Positions 1,612 to 36,515 of a stretch of 40,988 nucleotides of DNA are shown here, one piece after another; position 1 is the stretch's first letter, and every line of letters starts with the position of its first letter. The translations under genes were made by a program, and so were the position numbers. The notes below the pieces were generated by a model. The model saw only the letters and a program-made list of their open reading frames with translations. It ran no database searches and had not been told where the DNA came from. The DNA comes from a virus, in UHGV virus genome UHGV-0160030; one strand, given 5' to 3'.

Positions 1612-4600
1612 TCAGGCACTGCATAATCCTCCGTCCCGACGTGATGACTGCATAATTGACACAACCCTGCTGTCGATCAGATCCACCAGTCCCTTGGCTG
1701 ACTGCGTATCTATCTCGCCATTGCTCCCTTTATTCTGAATACTGATGTGATATACGGGAGAATAAACAAATCCACCGCCACCATTCACATTGCCAATGGC
1801 TCTGACTCCAAGAGAGCCGTCCGCTGCCCGAGTCAGTGGCATGATAGCTTCAGGCCCGGCCTCGCCCATCAGCCCGGCACCTTTCGCAAAAGCAAAATAC
1901 GTCGGGGTATCCACAATGGTGTTACTGTAAGCACTCAGATTTGCCGATGTATAAACACCACCTTTTGCGTTTGCCACTGCACCGGAAAGCCAGTCGCCGA
2001 CTGTACCAAGCCATCCTCCGGCACCGGACATGCTTTTGGAAAGTGACTTCAGCCCGTTAACGATGGCAGCGTTCATCAGAATTTTTGAAACTTCCTGGAG
2101 AATTGAACTCCCCCAGTTTCTCCAGTCCACAACATTTCCGGCCAGTGCATCGGAAATATTTGATACCAGCCCGTCCATCGTGGAAACGACAGCATCTGCC
2201 GCCTGCGAAGCATAATCGGTGGCACTGTCTGCCCAGTTCGTCAGCCCCTCTTTGAGCCCGGCATTCCAGTTACTGCGTAAAGCATCAGCCTTTACATAAT
2301 AATCCTGCTGATCGCTGAGACGCTCTTCCAGATATTTTTTATTCAGCTCTTTCTCCTGTTTCCACAGGGCTTCTTCAATTTCTCCGGCCTGATACTGTCT
2401 CAGTAGCTCGTTATTTTTCTGCTCAAACTCCTGCCGGATGCTCCACATTTCCTGAAGTCGTTCACGCATCCGTGAGCCTTCACCATATCCCAGTAACTGA
2501 GCCTCATTTGATGCTCTGACACTGGCATTACTGTCCGCCAGACTGCTCTCATACGCAGCAAGCTGCTCACGAATCTTTTTCTGGTCGATAAGTGCTGCAT
2601 TCTGCAAAAGCGTTTTTTTCTGCGCTTCTGACAGGGTTGATAATTCGCCCTGACTGACCTGATATTTCATCTTAGCCAGTTCAGTATTCTGCCCTGCCAG
2701 TGCTATCTGTTCTTTTTGCTGTTTAATCAGCCGTTTATAAATATCCTCTGTTTTTTCCGCTTCGGTCTTTTTATGCGCTTTGGGTTTATTTGCCTGGTTA
2801 TTTCGCCATGCATCCAGTGAGTTATTTATATAATTCAGTCTTGCTGTCTGATACGCCTCTCCCACAAATCCGAGATCATCCGCAGCATAACCCAGGCGGG
2901 CACGCTCACGAGCTTCCCCCTTCAGGCGGGACAGAGCCAGTTCGCGCTCGCTGTTATTCAGTGCGGTCTGCTGTTTATCATCCAGGGTTGCCTGTGGTAG
3001 CCGTAACGGTACATTCACCAGCCCCTGTCGCTGCTGAAGTAATTCATTACCGAGCCCGAGAAGGCGATTAAACTCGGTATGCTGCCCATTCATGATCAAC
3101 AGGGACTGATACGCTTTGTTTTGTTCCGCTGCCTGTTGACGGATCAACGCCACCCGTCGCTCCTCCAGCCCGGCAAGCACATCCTGAATGGATTGCGCTT
3201 TGCCCTGCATTTGAGTGAGGCGAGACTGTTCAACTGCCAGTTGATTTGTTGCTTCTGCAAGCCCTTCTGTGACAGTTTTTACCGACGTCATGTGGTTAAT
3301 CATAAAACCGTTATCGGTTGTCCAGCCCGGGTTTGCCAGCACATACTGATAGCCAGCAATTTTTTCCTGTAAGGATTTAATCTTACTTTTCTGCTCGTCA
3401 ATTAACCTGTTTTGCTCCTTCAGTGCCTGTCGCGTCTTTTCCTCATTATCTGACGCTTCAGGAAGCGACATTGCCGACGTTTTCTGGCGAATTTCGTCGA
3501 TTGTTGCGGCATACTGGCGTGCAGATTCTCTGGCCTGCTCCTGATTCTGATACATCGTGTACCAGGCCGCAGCCCCCAGCATGACGAGTCCCGGCACACC
3601 ACCAACCAGCCCCAGCGCGCCACTTAATAAACGACTCCCCACTGACGTAACATTATTCAGCGTTGTCTGTGCCGCTGTTCTGGCCGCAATATTACGGGTA
3701 AGTGACACCTGGGCAGCTGTCAGCTTCGCTTCTGCTGCGGCCTGCCTTTCGGTACCGCGAGCAGCAACAACCGCCTGTTGCGCACGATAAACCGCCGCAC
3801 GCGCCCTGGCGGTTGCTATCTGTGTCCCCCGAAGTTGCACTTCAGCAAGAGCCACTTCGTTTCTGGCTGCAGTAATTAATCCGGCAGTTGCAGATCCAGC
3901 AGACGACGCCATATTGCCAAAATATCGGGCTACCCCGACGGCAACCAGAGCACCAGCAGCGGTTGCCACGGTGTCAATATTGCCTGCAATACCATTCAGC
4001 ACACCGGAGAGCGTCTTCGTCACTCCGCTTGCCTCGTTCGCACCACCAACCCAGGCCATAAAGGCGTTTTCAACTTTGGTTGCAGAGGATGAAACCGTAT
4101 CAGGCATTGCTGCATATTCATCACGCAACGCCCCAAGCTGACTAATCAGTGCAGGAACAACCTTATCGGCGGTCAGTTTTCCGTTATCCGCCATGGCCTT
4201 CAGATCCTTACGGGCAACCCCCATTCCCGCAGCCAGCGCACGAATAACACGATCGCCGTTCTCATTCACCGAGTTAAACTCTTCACCGCGCAGCACTCCC
4301 TGCGCCAGTGCCTGACTGAACTGCGTGATCACCGAACTGGCTTCTGCTGTACTGGCACCGGATAATTTCAGGCCCGTGGAGATCGCCTCGGTGACTTTCA
4401 GTACCTCCTCAGAACTGTAACCATACTCCCGCATGGAAGCTGCAGAACGGGCAAAAAGGCTGGCGTTATCAGAAAACGCCGTCCCCGTTCTCTGGCTGAT
4501 CGCCATTAATTCACGCTGTGATGACTGAAAATCATCACTGGACTGTGAGGCCTGCTTCAGACGGGCATTTACTGAATTCCACTCATCAGCGAGAGAAATA

Positions 4601-16334: not shown

Positions 16335-16550
16335 TTACTCTCCCCGTGCAGCCTTACGACGGTCCTCTCTGATTTTGAAATACAGGTTAGTCAGATATGT
16401 CAGGAAGCCCAGAACCAGACTCCCCAGTACACCAATCGCAGCCCACTGTGACGGACTGACCTGATCAAGCCACTGTAAAAACCAGTAGCCAGCACTGCCT
16501 GCGGAGGTGCCGTAGGCAATGCCCGTTGAAATTTTATCCATGGATTTCAT
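16335..16550 (-). CDS. S: Pinholin (phage 21 S-like class II holin) with dual start motif
   Basis: 71 aa [27 protein letters not shown]...; two TM segments; Met1/Met4 dual start; strong GGAGGTGAGG RBS; the track ORF start at 16649 is an upstream extension. Confidence 0.8.
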
Positions 16551-16990: not shown

Positions 16991-17067
16991 TGGCGCGTTG
17001 TACTGGATTCGAACCAGTGACCGATTGCTTAGAAGGCAATTGCTCTGTCCGGTTGAGCTAACAACGC
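16991..17067 (-). tRNA. tRNA-Arg (anticodon UCU)
   Basis: Hand-folded cloverleaf: acceptor GCGTTGT/ACAACGC, anticodon loop CUUCUAA, T-loop TTCGAAT, CCA encoded. Confidence 0.8.
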
Positions 17068-17080
17068 AGGGTACAGATAA

Positions 17081-17157
17081 TGGACCGCCATCGAGGACTC
17101 GAACCCCGCGCAACCAGCTTCGAAGGCTGGCGCTCTATCCTGATGAGCTAATGGCGG
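17081..17157 (-). tRNA. tRNA-Arg (anticodon UCG)
   Basis: Hand-folded: anticodon stem CCAGC/GCTGG, loop CUUCGAA, T-loop TTCGAGT, 3' CCA; exact 5' end uncertain by 1 nt. Confidence 0.7.
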
Positions 17158-17164
17158 TATGTGA

Positions 17165-17240
17165 TGGTGGCCCTTGCTGGATTTGAACCAGCGACCTGGC
17201 GATTATGAGTCGCTCGCTCTCACCACTGAGCTAAAGGGCC
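17165..17240 (-). tRNA. tRNA with anticodon CAU (Ile2 lysidine-type or Met), resembles E. coli ileX
   Basis: GGCCCTTTAGCTCAGTGGT...CTCATAA...GGTTCAAATCC...CCACCA. Confidence 0.75.
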
Positions 17241-28940: not shown

Positions 28941-29129
28941 ATGAACATTTATTTCAGAATAGTTATATCACTGGCAATTATCGCATGTATTTACGGATTG
29001 CTCGTCCCGTTTCTGATATCAATGAAGGATACGGTAGCGGTGATTTCTGGCTTTGCACTGACGTTTCTAACCCCGCCATGTATTTATACCATTTATAAGG
29101 GGCTTTCTTTCACTAAGGATAAAAGATGA
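28941..29129 (+). CDS. Small two-transmembrane-helix protein (62 aa), coupled to SPFH gene
   Basis: AGGAGG RBS; two hydrophobic helices; stop overlaps start of next gene (ATGA). Confidence 0.65.
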   Translation: MNIYFRIVISLAIIACIYGLLVPFLISMKDTVAVISGFALTFLTPPCIYTIYKGLSFTKDKR

Positions 29130-29953
29130 AAAAAATTATTTTTTCTTTAGCCATTGTTCTGCCTGCCATTGGCCTTGTCGGTTGTGATCGTGTTGAGCCT
29201 GGTAATGTGGGCATCAAAGTCAACAAACTTGGCGACGACAAAGGCGTCGGTGAAGTGGTCGGTGTTGGTCGCTACTGGACAGGCTGGAACACTGAAGTTT
29301 ATATCTTCCCGACCTTTAAGCAGATGAAGACCTACGATGATCCATTCAGTTTCCAGATGAGCGATGGAACAACCATTGGTTACCACATCGGAGTAGCCTA
29401 CAAGGTTGATCCATCCAAAGTTACCACAGTCTTTCAGACCTACCGCAAAGGCGTGGACGACATTACCGACACCGACCTGCGCCAGAAGATAGCCGACGCA
29501 CTCAACCGACTGGCCAGCAAAATGACCACCGACAAATTTATCGACGGCGGCAAGTCTGAGCTGCTGGATGCAGCTCTTAAAGACATTCAGGAAGAAATGA
29601 CGCCCATCGGTATTCAGGTAATAAGCCTCTCATATGTGGGTAAGCCGGAGTACCCGCCTACTGTTATCGACAGCATTAATGCCAAAGTCACGGCGAACCA
29701 GAAAACTCTGCAACGCGAGCAGGAAGTAAAACAGCGCGAAGCGGAAGCCAACATGTTGCGCGCGGAAGCTGCCGGACAGGCTGATGCGATTCGCACAAAA
29801 GCCCAGGCTGAAGCCGATGCTATTCGTTTACGCGGTGAAGCTCTGCGTCAGAACCCCGGTGTTATGGAGCTGGAAGCCATCAATAAATGGAACGGCACGC
29901 TGCCGCAATACATGACCAGCGGTGCCAATACACCATTTATCCAGGTTAAATAA
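29126..29953 (+). CDS. SPFH/band-7 (stomatin/prohibitin/HflKC-like) domain lipoprotein
   Basis: 275 aa; signal peptide with lipobox LVGC; coiled-coil Ala/Glu/Gln-rich C-terminal region typical of SPFH proteins. Confidence 0.7.
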   Translation: MKKIIFSLAIVLPAIGLVGCDRVEPGNVGIKVNKLGDDKGVGEVVGVGRYWTGWNTEVYIFPTFKQMKTYDDPFSFQMSDGTTIGYHIGVAYKVDPSKVTTVFQTYRKGVDDITDTDLRQKIADALNRLASKMTTDKFIDGGKSELLDAALKDIQEEMTPIGIQVISLSYVGKPEYPPTVIDSINAKVTANQKTLQREQEVKQREAEANMLRAEAAGQADAIRTKAQAEADAIRLRGEALRQNPGVMELEAINKWNGTLPQYMTSGANTPFIQVK

Positions 29954-31090: not shown

Positions 31091-32404
31091 ATGGATAAAG
31101 TCAAATATCCAACAGGCGTCGAAAACCACGGCGGCACATTACGCATCTGGTTTAATTTTAAAGGTAAACGTGTCAGGGAAAATCTTGGTGTCCCTGACAC
31201 TGCCAAGAACAGGAAGATCGCCGGGGAACTGCGGACATCAGTATGTTTTGCCATCCGCACAGGAAGCTTTGATTATGCTGCACAGTTCCCTGACTCCCCC
31301 AACCTTCAGGCTTTTGGGGTAAGTAAAAAAGAAATTACGGTGAAGGAACTTGAAGAAAAGTGGCTGGATCTGAAACGAATGGAAATCTCTGCAAATGCAT
31401 TCAATCGCTATGAATCCGTTGCAAGAACGATGGTTCCGAAAATTGGAGGCAGTAGACTGGTGTCATCGGTAACCAAAGAGGAATTGCTGTATATCAGGAA
31501 AGATTTGCTTACCGGGTATCAGAATTCAACGAAAAACAAAGCAGCAGCAAAAGGACGGAGCGTCGTTACTGTAAATTATTACATGACGACAATCGCTGGA
31601 ATGTTTCAGTTTGCTGCAGATCACGGTTACTTAGAAGCAAATCCCTTCCAGGGAATTAAGCCTCTTAAAAGAGCCAGGGCAGAGCCAGATCCGCTAACTC
31701 GTGACGAATTTATTCGCCTGATAGATGCTTGCCGACATCAGCAGACGAAAAACCTGTGGTCATTGGCTGTGTACACAGGAATGCGTCACGGTGAACTGGT
31801 CTCCCTGGCCTGGGAAGATATCGATCTGAAGGCAGGAACAATTACCATCAGGCGCAATTATACGAAACTTGGTGAGTTCACTCTACCGAAAACTGAAGCA
31901 AGCACAAACAGGGTTGTGCACCTTATCCAGCCCGCTATCAGTGTCCTGAAAAATCAGGCTGAAATGACAAGACTGGGTAAGCAGTACAACATCAAGGTGC
32001 AACTACGTGAATATGGACGTTCAGTGAACCATGAATGTACTTTCGTGTTTAACCCTCAAGTGGTTAGAAAAAGCGAACAGGTAGGTTTTGTCTACAAAGT
32101 CGATTCTGTAGGTGACTCATGGGAAACAGCCATTAAGCGTGCAGGGATCAGGCATCGAAAGGCATACCAGTCACGACACACTTATGCGTGCTGGTCATTA
32201 TCTGCCGGAGCAAACCCAAGCTTCATTGCCAGCCAGATGGGCCATGCAAGTGCCCAGATGGTATTCAATGTATACGGAGCATGGATGACTGACAGCAATG
32301 CAGAACAGATCGCAATGCTGAATCAGAAGCTGACAGATTATGTCCCAATGATGCCCCATAGTCACCAAAGTGACACCAGAGGCTTATTAAAATCAGTAAG
32401 TTAA
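31091..32404 (+). CDS. int: Tyrosine integrase
   Basis: 437 aa; GGAGG RBS; C-terminal catalytic region with R...H..R...Y spacing (HRTYACWSLSAGANPSFIASQMGHASAQMVFNVYGAW). Confidence 0.85.
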   Translation: MDKVKYPTGVENHGGTLRIWFNFKGKRVRENLGVPDTAKNRKIAGELRTSVCFAIRTGSFDYAAQFPDSPNLQAFGVSKKEITVKELEEKWLDLKRMEISANAFNRYESVARTMVPKIGGSRLVSSVTKEELLYIRKDLLTGYQNSTKNKAAAKGRSVVTVNYYMTTIAGMFQFAADHGYLEANPFQGIKPLKRARAEPDPLTRDEFIRLIDACRHQQTKNLWSLAVYTGMRHGELVSLAWEDIDLKAGTITIRRNYTKLGEFTLPKTEASTNRVVHLIQPAISVLKNQAEMTRLGKQYNIKVQLREYGRSVNHECTFVFNPQVVRKSEQVGFVYKVDSVGDSWETAIKRAGIRHRKAYQSRHTYACWSLSAGANPSFIASQMGHASAQMVFNVYGAWMTDSNAEQIAMLNQKLTDYVPMMPHSHQSDTRGLLKSVS

Positions 32405-32695: not shown

Positions 32696-32944
32696 ATGCG
32701 TATTGAAATCTGCATAGCCAAAGAAAAAATGACTAAAATGCCAACCGGTGCTGTGGATGCGTTAAAGGAAGAATTAACCCGACGCATCAGTAAACGTTAT
32801 GACGATGTAGAGGTGATCGTAAAAGCCACCAGCAACGATGGCCTTTCTGTTACGCGCACCGCCGATAAAGATTCAGCTAAAACTTTTGTTCAGGAAACTC
32901 TGAAAGATACCTGGGAGTCTGCTGACGAGTGGTTTGTTCACTAA
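32696..32944 (+). CDS. dinI: DinI-family protein (SOS-inducible RecA modulator)
   Basis: 82 aa; [27 protein letters not shown]...[16 protein letters not shown] closely resembles recalled E. coli DinI; AGAGGGA RBS. Confidence 0.8.
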
Positions 32945-33011: not shown

Positions 33012-33050
33012 GCCGCAGTATCCTGTCATGACAAGTTACTGCGGCTTTTT
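33012..33050 (+). terminator. Intrinsic terminator after dinI (long GC stem around the palindrome tgtcatgaca, then T5)
   Basis: gccgcagtatcctgtcatgacaagttactgcggcttttt. Confidence 0.7.
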
Positions 33051-33061
33051 ACTTTTTATAT

Positions 33062-33349
33062 TTAACGGATCAACATCCAGATCAGCAGACACGCCACCAC
33101 CGGCACAGCAAAATCCATCAGGCTTGCCACATCCCATGCACGTGGATCAAAACCGCCCCACCACGGCATGTTAATCCGCTTGCCATGCCCGAACATTTCA
33201 ATCCAGCGATATTCTGCCTGGGTGTGTTCACGCGCAATGAAGAACGTACAACCGGCTATCGCCCCGTAAGCCCAGTTTCCGGTAAAAAGACCAGCCAGTA
33301 CCTGCACCGCCACGGCACAAAGCGCATGAAGTATCGACGTGATATCCAT
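33062..33349 (-). CDS. Predicted small inner-membrane protein (95 aa)
   Basis: AAGGGGAG RBS; hydrophobic segments; last gene of the tail-fibre operon. Confidence 0.55.
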   Translation of the reverse strand: MDITSILHALCAVAVQVLAGLFTGNWAYGAIAGCTFFIAREHTQAEYRWIEMFGHGKRINMPWWGGFDPRAWDVASLMDFAVPVVACLLIWMLIR

Positions 33350-33358
33350 CTGCTCCCC

Positions 33359-33637
33359 TTAAAACCACTCCCTGAGCGGGCGCTCTGGTGTAACCACCCA
33401 CTCACGGAACACGGATTCATCAAAGCCATCGTCAAGAAGACGAATATTAACAAAGTACCCTTCGTCTCGCGTGTATTCAGGCTCCCCGTCAGCAGAAACA
33501 CCTGACTCACTGAACGTAAAACCAATCTCATCAACCAGAACGGCATTCTGCAGCTCTTCGTCCTCTTCCCAGTTAAGTTTCCTGAGAAATGCCCTGAAAT
33601 CTGCTTTATCACTGAAACGCAACGTGAAATCTCTCAC
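33359..33637 (-). CDS. Hypothetical acidic protein (92 aa), possible tail fibre assembly/accessory protein
   Basis: GTG start overlapping stf stop (GTGA coupling); position of tfa in lambda but no sequence resemblance recognised. Confidence 0.45.
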   Translation of the reverse strand: MRDFTLRFSDKADFRAFLRKLNWEEDEELQNAVLVDEIGFTFSESGVSADGEPEYTRDEGYFVNIRLLDDGFDESVFREWVVTPERPLREWF

Positions 33638-35697
33638 TCCACAACCTCCCCAAGCTGCGCATCTGTTAGCTCTTTATGCCAGAGACGAAAATTCCTCACA
33701 TGCCCAAATAAATGGCGTAATCCTGCTGTAGTTTGTCCACCAATGCGAATGGTTGCTGTACTCCGGATATATTCCCATTTGGTTTTAGTTTCGCTGCTTA
33801 ACTTACCGTTACTGACTACACATGTGGACCGTTCGGACTTTACCCGCATACCAATAAGCATTTTTTCCAGCCCGGCATTTTCATTTATTCGTCGGTCTGA
33901 ACCACCTATATCGCAATACGGAAAACCGTCGTACCCACCTGATGAACCAAACCCCATTACGATCCCCGCATCTGCCTGATGCCGGTATGTGTCAAAAACA
34001 CGCGGTGCTGCATTTGGCGTTTTATACCAGTTCTTATGTACCTCACAAAGAACCGTAAAAGGAAGATTATAAAGATTATTCTTAATCGGAACTGTAACCA
34101 TATCGCTTGCCCGCGTTACCGGTGCCGTCCCCGTAACAATAAAAGATGATGCGCCTGTACCAGCCTCAATCTGTGGAGTGGTTACATCGAGATAATCCCC
34201 TGATGCAACCATCTGCCCTGTATCCGGAGAATACTGGACAAAACCACCAACCGTATTTTCTGTTGTATCTGCTTTTAATGTAGCCTCAAAAAATATCCAG
34301 CCAGTTGCATCATCCTTAACAGACCTTGCTGTAACACGGCTTGTCTGACCTGTCTTGCTAATTATGCGGGTGGTAAGGTTCAGGTTTGCTGCTCCTATTG
34401 ATGTCCTTACCTCCCCATCATAATGTTCAAATAAAATACGAACGGCGATATTATCAACTTCACTTTTTACCCGACAGGATATAGTTACATGCTTTTCGTC
34501 CCCTGAAGTATCAACCCCTCCGGTACTCGAATACAGTCCGATAATGGTATGCGCTTTACTTGTACCAACAATCGAATCCTGTACGACAAACCGGCCATAA
34601 TTAAACCCGAAACTATCTGTGCCTGTTTCTGTAACGTCCAGTGAAGTTGACTTATTCCACTTCGAAGGGTCTGTACTGTTCTGGAAGAAGTTCGTTCTTT
34701 GTCCCTCAATAAGCAGGCCATCACACTCAAATCGCGGCTCATTAATTTCCGCCGTTTTCAGTTCGCCAGATTTGTTGATATATGTTGCCGTTGATGCGCG
34801 ACTGAAATTAATCTGTTTATCACTGGCAACCTGAACCACATTATCGCCAATCTTCACTTTTTTATAACCCGGAGAATAGCCCGTAATCATATCCAGCGAA
34901 TCATTAAAGGGTATCCACACATCCGGCAGCGGCTGTAAAACATATCTGTACGGCTCTGCTGTCTGGTTTGCGTATTCTCTGGCAGCATCTTCACTTGCTT
35001 TTGCTGCCGTCTGGCTTGCTGCCGATGCTTTCGCCGAGTTCGCCGCCGCTGTTTCGCTCACCTTTGCGTTGGCTTCACTGTCTTTGGCATTCGTCTCACT
35101 GGTTTTCGCTGCCGTCTGGCTGGATTTTGCGTTTTTTTCGCTGGCCTTTGTGGCTGTCTCGCTATTTTTCGCGCTGGTTTCTGATTTTTTGGCTGCTGTC
35201 GCGGAGTTTGCCGATGCAGTCTGCGAGGCCGCTGCCGCCTGTGCGCTGTTAGCTGCATTCGTTTCTGAGGTTTTCGCCGCATTCTTCGATGAGGCTGCTG
35301 CCGTTTCGGATTTCTTTGCCGCCGCTGCACTCTGTGATGACGCTCCGGCATGACGTGCCACTTCATTCACCATCAGCTCAAAACGGCGCAGTGCCTCCGG
35401 ACGGGCATCATCCTCCGTCATGGCACCGAGAAAATCATTCAGCGTACCTGGTCTGGAACCTTCATAGACGGTAATGGTCCCGGCATGTGAAGGTGGAAAA
35501 CCTTCAACCAGCAGGGTGACGCTGTACTGGCCATACTCAACATCCATGCTGTAACGCCCGGCTTCATCCGGATTTTCAGAGGCCACCGTGTTCACCACCA
35601 CCGTGCTGCTGGTCCGTCTGGCCTTCAGCACAATGGTGCAGTTCTGTACTGGTTTTCCTGTGCCATCTTTAAGCACGCCAGAAATTTTTACTGTCAT
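33634..35697 (-). CDS. stf: Side tail fibre protein
   Basis: N-terminus MTVKISGVLKDGTGKPVQNCTI... matches recalled lambda Stf; Ala/Ser/Thr-rich repeats; divergent C-terminal domain. Confidence 0.85.
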   Translation of the reverse strand: MTVKISGVLKDGTGKPVQNCTIVLKARRTSSTVVVNTVASENPDEAGRYSMDVEYGQYSVTLLVEGFPPSHAGTITVYEGSRPGTLNDFLGAMTEDDARPEALRRFELMVNEVARHAGASSQSAAAAKKSETAAASSKNAAKTSETNAANSAQAAAASQTASANSATAAKKSETSAKNSETATKASEKNAKSSQTAAKTSETNAKDSEANAKVSETAAANSAKASAASQTAAKASEDAAREYANQTAEPYRYVLQPLPDVWIPFNDSLDMITGYSPGYKKVKIGDNVVQVASDKQINFSRASTATYINKSGELKTAEINEPRFECDGLLIEGQRTNFFQNSTDPSKWNKSTSLDVTETGTDSFGFNYGRFVVQDSIVGTSKAHTIIGLYSSTGGVDTSGDEKHVTISCRVKSEVDNIAVRILFEHYDGEVRTSIGAANLNLTTRIISKTGQTSRVTARSVKDDATGWIFFEATLKADTTENTVGGFVQYSPDTGQMVASGDYLDVTTPQIEAGTGASSFIVTGTAPVTRASDMVTVPIKNNLYNLPFTVLCEVHKNWYKTPNAAPRVFDTYRHQADAGIVMGFGSSGGYDGFPYCDIGGSDRRINENAGLEKMLIGMRVKSERSTCVVSNGKLSSETKTKWEYIRSTATIRIGGQTTAGLRHLFGHVRNFRLWHKELTDAQLGEVVE

Positions 35698-35711: not shown

Positions 35712-35743
35712 AAAAAAAGCCCGCAGCAGTGACGCCACGGGCT
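35712..35743 (-). terminator. Intrinsic terminator downstream of lom
   Basis: plus strand aaaaaaagcccgcagcagtgacgccacgggct; minus-strand stem AGCCCG/CGGGCU then U7. Confidence 0.55.
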
Positions 35744-35848
35744 TCAGGACAATGTAACTTTACGTTTCCTCAAACGCAGTTCACCCCATAAGGCGGATGA
35801 ACCTGCGTATCATAACAATATTTACAGAAGATAAATCGGCGTCTGTTG

Positions 35849-36472: not shown

Positions 36473-36496
36473 AAAAAAGGCGCCATTTCTGGCGCC
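36473..36496 (-). terminator. Intrinsic terminator between J and lom (GGCGCC palindromic stem plus U-run)
   Basis: plus strand aaaaaaggcgccatttctggcgcc. Confidence 0.55.
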
Positions 36497-36515
36497 CGTA
36501 TTGGGGTTATAAAAT

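Follow-up and report, generated by a model that had tools for sequence, protein, structure and literature searches.

What do the two small genes that directly follow the side tail fibre gene, stf, in the lambdoid phage genome UHGV-0160030 encode, and do they serve the fibre or act on the host cell? The whole stretch of DNA that was analysed (the window, positions 1-40988) is a complete, circularly permuted phage genome whose late operon lies on the minus strand, running from about 13300 down to 1 and then from 40988 down to 33062. Towards the end of this operon stf (35697-33634, 687 residues) is followed by genes for a 92-residue and a 95-residue protein, here called p92 (33637-33359) and p95 (33349-33062). 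Comparison of loci shows p95 to be an independently mobile module, more conserved than Stf or p92 and recurrent after receptor-binding genes in four virion architectures. p92 tracks the distal part of the fibre and is the better candidate for a fibre partner. Stf and p92 would form one evolutionary unit and p95 a second, both housed in the receptor-binding end of the late operon.

Two genuine genes behind stf

The original prediction described two small genes coupled in translation to stf, and all three genes are present, on the minus strand. The coupling holds for p92, as the stf stop codon TGA (33636-33634) overlaps the p92 GTG start (33637-33635) to give GTGA (33634-33637), and a ribosome-binding site GGGGAGG, read from the sequence within the 3' end of stf (33651-33645), lies 7 nt upstream of the GTG. 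It does not extend to p95, which is separated from p92 without overlap by a 9-nt gap (TAA-GGGGAGCAG-ATG) holding a strong ribosome-binding site of its own, GGGGAG (33353-33358, sequence TAAGGGGAGCAGATG), as had been noted. Phage 21 carries these three genes too, again with a 4-nt stf/p92 overlap, and its p95 homologue is annotated as a putative membrane protein. In two E. ruysiae prophages tblastn places the end of Stf and the start of p92 on the same base, and the start residue of p92 homologues matches that in the window, with MKD or MRD.

Both proteins match PHROG families of unknown function over their full length, p92 phrog_1361 (E 2.5e-39) and p95 phrog_1443 (E 4.4e-57). The ratio of nonsynonymous to synonymous substitution rates among E. 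coli copies, about 0.42 for p92 and 0.19 for p95, indicates purifying selection on both. Among 5426 complete E. coli genomes the p95 gene is found in 1900, at 3926 places in all and up to 7 in a single genome, and the window variant of p92 in 365; PGAP annotates the listed copies of both as hypothetical. Scans with Pfam, NCBIfam and PADLOC and sequence and profile searches of the PDB returned nothing for either protein, the stf/p92/p95 region has no match in Rfam, and a literature search found no paper on p92 or p95. p92 and p95 are genuine genes. No sigma-70-like site is present on the minus strand from lom to the end of p95, and from this lack alone we infer that p95 in the window would be expressed late, with the late operon.

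p92 as a putative partner of the fibre

Stf is built of an N-terminal domain common to lambdoid Stf proteins (Pfam phage_tail_N, E 4e-68), a rod rich in Ala, Ser, Lys and Thr, and a variable distal receptor-binding part (residues 251-687; 33634-34947, minus strand), and it matches phrog_1419 and phrog_5939. Residues 329-530 score 69.8 bits against a cut-off of 36 with the NCBIfam model GTA_spike_fiber (NF048003), and the distal part matches PDB entry 6TB9, the RcGTA head spike fibre Rcc01080 (phmmer E 5e-5). Sequence similarity places this domain firmly in the RcGTA head-spike-fibre type. Pfam detects no Peptidase_S74 self-chaperone domain in Stf, and no Tfa homologue adjoins stf. The rod itself (34950-35350, residues ~115-245) consists of low-complexity Ala/Ser/Lys/Thr/Glu repeats such as AAKTSETNAK; in PhiR49_1 Stf has 812 residues against 687 in the window, and 121 alignment gaps sit in the rod repeats.

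p92 is acidic, as predicted, with an isoelectric point of 4.25 (23 acidic and 11 basic residues). The AlphaFold2 model (predicted local distance difference test score, pLDDT, 91.8) is that of a small soluble alpha/beta protein in the order strand-helix-helix-four strands-helix, for which structure searches gave no specific or informative relative. There is a weak match to phrog_18574. Admitting E values up to 0.1, hmmscan against Pfam-A gave two chance-level matches only, the tail-fibre assembly family not being matched, and NCBIfam gave no match. An exhaustive search brought up giant PKD-repeat proteins, which were set aside as compositional or repeat noise because they are ordinary PKD, Ig or lectin repeat proteins. 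p92 has no stretch conserved enough for an alignment-based locus search.

The evidence that ties p92 to the fibre comes from the loci. A p92 gene lies directly behind a homologous distal Stf domain in six Escherichia and phage loci and in 70 of 80 viral loci from IMG/VR, and in Escherichia every homologous distal Stf domain found has a p92 homologue behind it. Across the 80 IMG/VR loci (identities relative to the window copy) the N-terminal domain of Stf is 85-100% and the distal part 39-99% identical, and p92 identity follows the latter: its mean falls through 95, 82, 61 and 40% over Stf bins from 90-100% to below 50% (r = 0.76). In phiSTEC1575-Stx2k, where the tail protein is alike in the N-terminal 140 residues only, p92 is missing. 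The arrangement recurs in prophages of Comamonas and in one from a genome labelled Pantoea sp., in which a separate 388-402 residue fibre-like protein, a p92-like protein and a p95 homologue stand in the same order; in the two such loci scanned against PHROGs the fibre-like protein matches phrog_5939/1419, as does distal Stf, and the p92-like protein (95-188 residues overall) matches phrog_18574 in its N-terminal part. In three of these prophages (L032 7432-7998; L022 7484-7999; L026 7432-7998) a 171-188 residue protein has the p92-like domain as its N-terminal half. In the two scanned the C-terminal half matches phrog_6034, plus phrog_14311 in one of them, both PHROGs of unknown function.

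A dedicated fibre partner would be expected to show the position, the coupled translation, the restriction to a single fibre type and the co-divergence seen for p92, and we therefore lean, with some reserve, towards p92 being a fibre-specific assembly partner of Stf in place of lambda Tfa. p92, taken to be cytoplasmic, would bind the distal Stf domain, whether as a chaperone dedicated to its assembly or as a subunit that stays at the tip, and would serve Stf as Tfa serves the lambda fibre, without Tfa homology. The chaperone idea raised with the original prediction thus holds up for p92, which tracks distal Stf in presence and divergence, and is dropped for p95. There is a slim chance that p92 is instead a regulator or inhibitor of the fibre, or a partner of p95 binding its basic cytoplasmic loop. 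Moving this fibre type onto another phage probably requires p92 too.

Many E. coli prophages carry a second short fibre gene (234 or 346 residues, with the self-cleaving Peptidase_S74 chaperone domain) between p92 and p95 (L076 4803-5507; L006 6918-7958; L008 7286-7990), which suggests branched or alternative side fibres.

p95 recurs in the slot after the receptor-binding gene

p95 behaves differently from p92. In the 80 IMG/VR loci it stays 88-100% identical while distal Stf spans 39-99%, and its G+C content of 53.8% is unlike that of p92 (48.0%) and distal Stf (44.5%). Set beside morons, autonomous cargo units of phage late regions with their own promoter and terminator, a composition of their own and a patchy distribution, p95 differs in composition from its flanks and is independent of fibre type; in the window no promoter-like site was found for it and it lies 9 nt from p92.

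The original prediction had argued from position, and this argument is borne out, as p95 homologues stand directly after receptor-binding genes in siphoviruses, podoviruses and myoviruses. In Escherichia lambdoid prophages p95 ends the fibre module (Stf, p92, p95, or Stf, p92, second fibre, p95), in the Stx2k phage it lies directly behind the gene for a 609-residue tail protein, and in siphoviral prophages directly behind Tail_spike_N tailspikes. It directly follows P22-type tailspikes in Gally, 611R6 and a Klebsiella prophage, overlapping the tailspike gene by 8 nt in the last, and the tail fibre in the epsilon15-like phiv142-3. In the P2-like myovirus phiHAP-1 it comes after the fibre and Tfa, with a 4-nt overlap with Tfa, and the sheath gene follows it. 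The p95 proteins of E. coli sipho- and podoviruses are 76-98% identical to the window copy, and that of the Halomonas myovirus is 40% identical. An Aeromonas jumbo phage has an 87-residue homologue two genes upstream of the tail fibre gene.

The genes that share this slot include several that alter surface polysaccharide. In epsilon15 the very place that p95 occupies in phiv142-3 holds an O-antigen-ligase-family gene and the alpha-polymerase inhibitor, and is the conversion slot of epsilon15. In 611R6 an OafA O-acetylase gene lies just upstream of p95, and in the Klebsiella P22-like prophage GtrA-type, GtrB-type and glucosyltransferase genes lie downstream. In the P22-like Gally a strong late terminator and an AT-rich spacer of 190 nt precede p95, which also has an AAGGAG site for itself; p95 is thereby an autonomous unit there.

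In the sewage siphovirus vB_Eco_ZCEC08 an unannotated, truncated 51-residue p95 remnant directly follows the endosialidase gene (L161 4465-4620; …IPWWGGFDWRAWDLPSLLD) and gives the impression of a passenger in decay that came with a transferred tailspike module. In siphoviral prophages near ompW/trpA (L166 and L168, 5386-5973) p95 is followed by two small conserved open reading frames (79 and 105-111 residues), and then by chromosomal genes; Pfam gave no match for the L166 pair. Phage 21 and Lambda_4C10 carry a complete sitABCD iron/manganese transporter operon beyond p95, convergent with it (L002 445-3894; L077 1445-4894), and therefore much cargo accumulates at this junction.

Predicted topology of p95

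p95 was expected to be a membrane protein with hydrophobic segments, and it is predicted to be integral to the membrane. The AlphaFold2 model (pLDDT 92.1) has three hydrophobic helices, residues 4-23, 26-53 and 74-94. Searching with the single query yields a family of 563 clusters, and with a profile 1609, and the homologues listed all lack both a Pfam domain and an informative name. Conservation was assessed over members from enterobacteria, Aeromonas, Comamonadaceae, sphingomonads, Halomonas, Desulfovibrio and phages, representing gamma-, beta-, alpha- and delta-proteobacteria. It centres on a motif, RE-TQAEYRWI..G.G.R.NMPWWGGFD.R.W, at codons 40-72 (33134-33232, minus strand), in which R40, E41, Q44, E46, R48 and W72 are invariant; H8, Y47, W49, R58, MPWW (61-64), D79 and P83 are nearly so. 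Lysine and arginine average 5.5 residues in the loop 40-73 and about none elsewhere, and because basic residues are confined to this loop the positive-inside rule assigns it to the cytoplasm together with the N-terminus, and the C-terminus to the outside. p95 is thus predicted to be a three-helix inner-membrane protein, N-terminus in and C-terminus out, with its invariant motif facing the cytoplasm.

A lipobox-like IAGC at residues 31-34 raised the possibility of a cleaved lipoprotein, which would suit the outer-membrane receptor masks of the Cor and Llp kind that the original prediction had in mind. We rejected it because p95 lacks a basic N-terminal region, its N-terminus is conserved and the cysteine is lost in alpha-proteobacterial members. 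The N-terminus averages 0.12 lysine plus arginine and has an invariant Asp2, His8 and Gln16 are conserved within the would-be signal, and Cys34 becomes Ala or Ser in the alpha-proteobacterial proteins. The same features, with the predicted cytoplasmic loop, speak against a Cor/Llp-type mask. One Aeromonas member carries the UniRef name 'Prolipoprotein diacylglyceryl transferase', which is unsupported and was treated as a mis-annotation.

p95 homologues in cellular genomes

The expectation of a phage-only factor did not survive wider comparison. In five Aeromonas genomes the p95 homologue lies between the pirin and RIO-kinase genes, beside a pair of genes for lipid A acyltransferases, and phage genes are absent from the vicinity. 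In five Leclercia genomes it lies upstream of MetE-like and urea-type ABC transporter genes, with an M3 peptidase gene upstream in three of the five. The alpha-proteobacterial neighbours vary and include ligA, ftsZ, thiC and methyltransferase genes, and among 98 flanking proteins from the alpha- and other proteobacterial loci no neighbour is shared by more than three loci. In Devosia and Sphingomonas humi the homologue is found inside Kps-type capsule loci, among genes for Poly_export/SLBB, Capsule_synth, SIS+CBS (KpsF-like), CMP-Kdo synthetase-type (KpsU-like) and KdsA-type proteins. On these comparisons p95 belongs to a large unnamed proteobacterial family that has stable chromosomal members outside prophages.

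What p95 may do

Our preferred reading, held tentatively and rated a little short of an even chance, is that p95 is cargo of the conversion or exclusion type, which would act on the envelope from its place in the inner membrane. In the version we favour, p95, expressed in the window with the late operon, would interfere with the assembly or export of the surface polysaccharide bound by such fibres and tailspikes, so that progeny or superinfecting phage would not be caught by the producing or lysogenic cell. We favour this version because of the logic of the slot, the polysaccharide-binding kind of fibres and tailspikes that p95 follows, and the two homologues in capsule loci. A bolder form, in which the p95 family would be an undescribed, near-universal companion of phage receptor-binding proteins, a small inner-membrane effector taken from a cellular family with some members in capsule loci, and would shut down or re-route the export of surface polysaccharide (O-antigen, capsule) from the cytoplasmic face, so that for phages of any tail type the producing or host cell stops displaying their receptor, seems to us improbable.

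Several observations weigh against p95 being conversion or exclusion cargo. p95 is near-constant while the fibres it follows change specificity, and as it is unchanged across receptor types it cannot be matched to a particular receptor and any target would have to be generic. Most chromosomal homologues sit in unrelated housekeeping contexts (ligA, ftsZ, thiC, dcp, pirin) and few in capsule loci. Stretches behind receptor-binding genes are hot-spots for cargo in general, so that the position of p95 is by itself weak evidence. Most exclusion genes need expression in the lysogen, and with no promoter-like site before p95 in the window such expression is not indicated there.

One alternative is that p95 is host-physiology cargo unrelated to adsorption, hitch-hiking where temperate phages exchange DNA. 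This would fit a family that is cellular and widespread, with 1609 clusters and alpha-proteobacterial neighbours that are varied and mostly housekeeping, a junction that in related phages also holds sitABCD, dinI and an omptin gene, and the decayed copy carried with the endosialidase module into the sewage siphovirus. We nevertheless consider it somewhat unlikely, as the linkage of p95 holds across four unrelated virion architectures, the order fibre, p92, p95 is kept from E. coli to Comamonas phages at about 25% fibre identity, and the homologue of the Aeromonas jumbo phage also lies close to the tail fibre gene, two genes upstream. In phiHAP-1, moreover, p95 is not found at an attachment-site (att) junction: it lies amid the tail operon and overlaps a neighbour by 4 nt.

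Alternatively p95 might block phage DNA entry at the inner membrane, as T4 Imm, P22 SieA and HK97 gp15 do, and not act on the receptor. A small predicted inner-membrane protein with a conserved face on the cytoplasmic side would suit this role, as would its frequency and multiple copies in E. coli prophages, and the stand-alone p95 of Gally behind the late terminator has the usual arrangement of prophage-expressed genes. Yet p95 matches no Pfam or PADLOC model, hence none of their exclusion and defence families, it has no promoter-like site for lysogenic expression in the window, and the same protein is found in E. coli sipho- and podoviruses, whose entry routes differ, with the 40% identical relative in the Halomonas myovirus. 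Chromosomal orthologues in fixed synteny, as in Aeromonas and Leclercia, would also be unusual for an exclusion gene, and we judge a block of DNA entry to be unlikely.

That p95 is a holin or other lysis-timing membrane protein is scarcely credible, and the idea was rejected. It was raised by the endolysin gene directly after p95 in Acidovorax, and it is in keeping with three predicted transmembrane helices in about 95 residues and with the lysis cassette that comes just downstream of p95 in Acidovorax and Comamonas prophages and in phiv142-3. Against it, the window has elsewhere (about 16335-16550, minus strand) a stretch identical to the annotated S holin gene of PhiR49_2, another membrane protein stands between p95 and the endolysin in each Comamonas-type cassette inspected, p95 lacks a charged C-terminal tail (mean 2.5 residues, 0.5 lysine plus arginine) and matches no Pfam family, holin families included, its loop is far more conserved than is usual for holins, and the protein has stable chromosomal orthologues.

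Surroundings of the locus in the window

Upstream of stf in the late operon lie J (40214-36516, minus strand) and lom (36448-35849, minus strand), the latter with a terminator-like hairpin on each side (36478-36497 and 35716-35745), an arrangement typical of autonomous cargo genes. The second of these, in the lom/stf interval, is an intrinsic-type hairpin on the minus strand with a 13-bp stem followed by TTTTTATT, and a terminator is annotated at the corresponding position of phage 21; in the lysogen this hairpin would keep lom transcription from reaching stf, p92 and p95. On the other side p95 converges with dinI (32696-32944, plus strand). The interval between them holds a hairpin, GCCGCAGTA...TACTGCGGC (33012-33058), which has a T-run on the plus (dinI) side only and was not listed on the minus strand by a simple terminator scan. 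Beyond dinI lies int (31091-32404, plus strand).

In the early-left region near int a plus-strand pair of open reading frames overlaps by 4 nt, one encoding 62 hydrophobic residues (28941-29129) and the other 275 residues (29126-29953) with a lipoprotein-like signal, MKKIIFSLAIVLPAIGLVGC, at its start. The pair (28941-29953) gave no PADLOC match and could be another membrane-associated cargo or defence pair.

In its first 25 kb the window is about 97% identical, over 91% of that length, to the Escherichia phage PhiR49_2. Its record, like the window, has 40,988 bp, yet the two differ by indels, for example of about 140 nt between dinI and p95. Genes for tRNA Arg-tct, Arg-tcg and Met-cat lie at 16991-17240, upstream of the lysis cassette, as in PhiR49_2, where S is followed by a YdfR-family gene, R and Rz.

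Comparison with known systems

p92 invites comparison with lambda Tfa, P2 G, Mu U and T4 gp38, which like it are small, are encoded directly after the fibre gene, are co-translated with it and diverge with its distal domain. Unlike Tfa-type proteins, p92 has no match to the Pfam tail-fibre assembly family, is half the size of Tfa and has a predicted fold without an informative match. The fibre itself finds its counterpart in the RcGTA head-spike fibre Rcc01080, with which distal Stf shares the NCBIfam domain and the match to a solved chain. In RcGTA, however, the domain is on a capsid spike, which we take to bind capsule, and in the window it is on a lambdoid side tail fibre.

For p95 the nearest parallels in position are the epsilon15 conversion genes, OafA-type O-acetylases and gtr genes, whose products are likewise small or multi-pass inner-membrane proteins encoded in the slot after the tailspike or fibre; P22 itself presumably carries gtrABC there. 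p95 differs in being too small for a glycosyl- or acyltransferase and in being constant across receptor types. No homology was detected: hhalign gave a probability of 0.1% for epsilon15 gp22 and below 1% for both gp22 and gp23, and there was no Pfam match. Cor of phi80, N15 and T1 and Llp of T5, the FhuA-masking outer-membrane lipoproteins, resemble p95 in small size and in adjoining the receptor-binding gene; p95, without a basic N-terminal region, with its lipobox-like cysteine unconserved and with a predicted inner-membrane location and cytoplasmic loop, is of another kind. T4 Imm, P22 SieA and HK97 gp15 are small inner-membrane proteins, as p95 is predicted to be. No sequence relationship to them was found, and p95 differs from them in its cellular orthologues and in being carried by phages that enter the cell by different routes.

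p95-type genes are present in about one-third of complete E. coli genomes, often in several copies, and are annotated as hypothetical only. In phages with very unlike tails they keep strictly to one place, behind the gene that determines host range. Should p95 change the display of receptors or the entry of phage, it would be a widespread and overlooked factor in specificity between phage and host and among phages, with consequences for prophage competition, for serotype biology and for how engineered fibres and phage-derived particles are designed. Genes beside the receptor-binding gene that change the host surface or exclude phages are familiar; what is new here is the p95 family itself, the breadth of tail types that it accompanies, and its cellular relatives.

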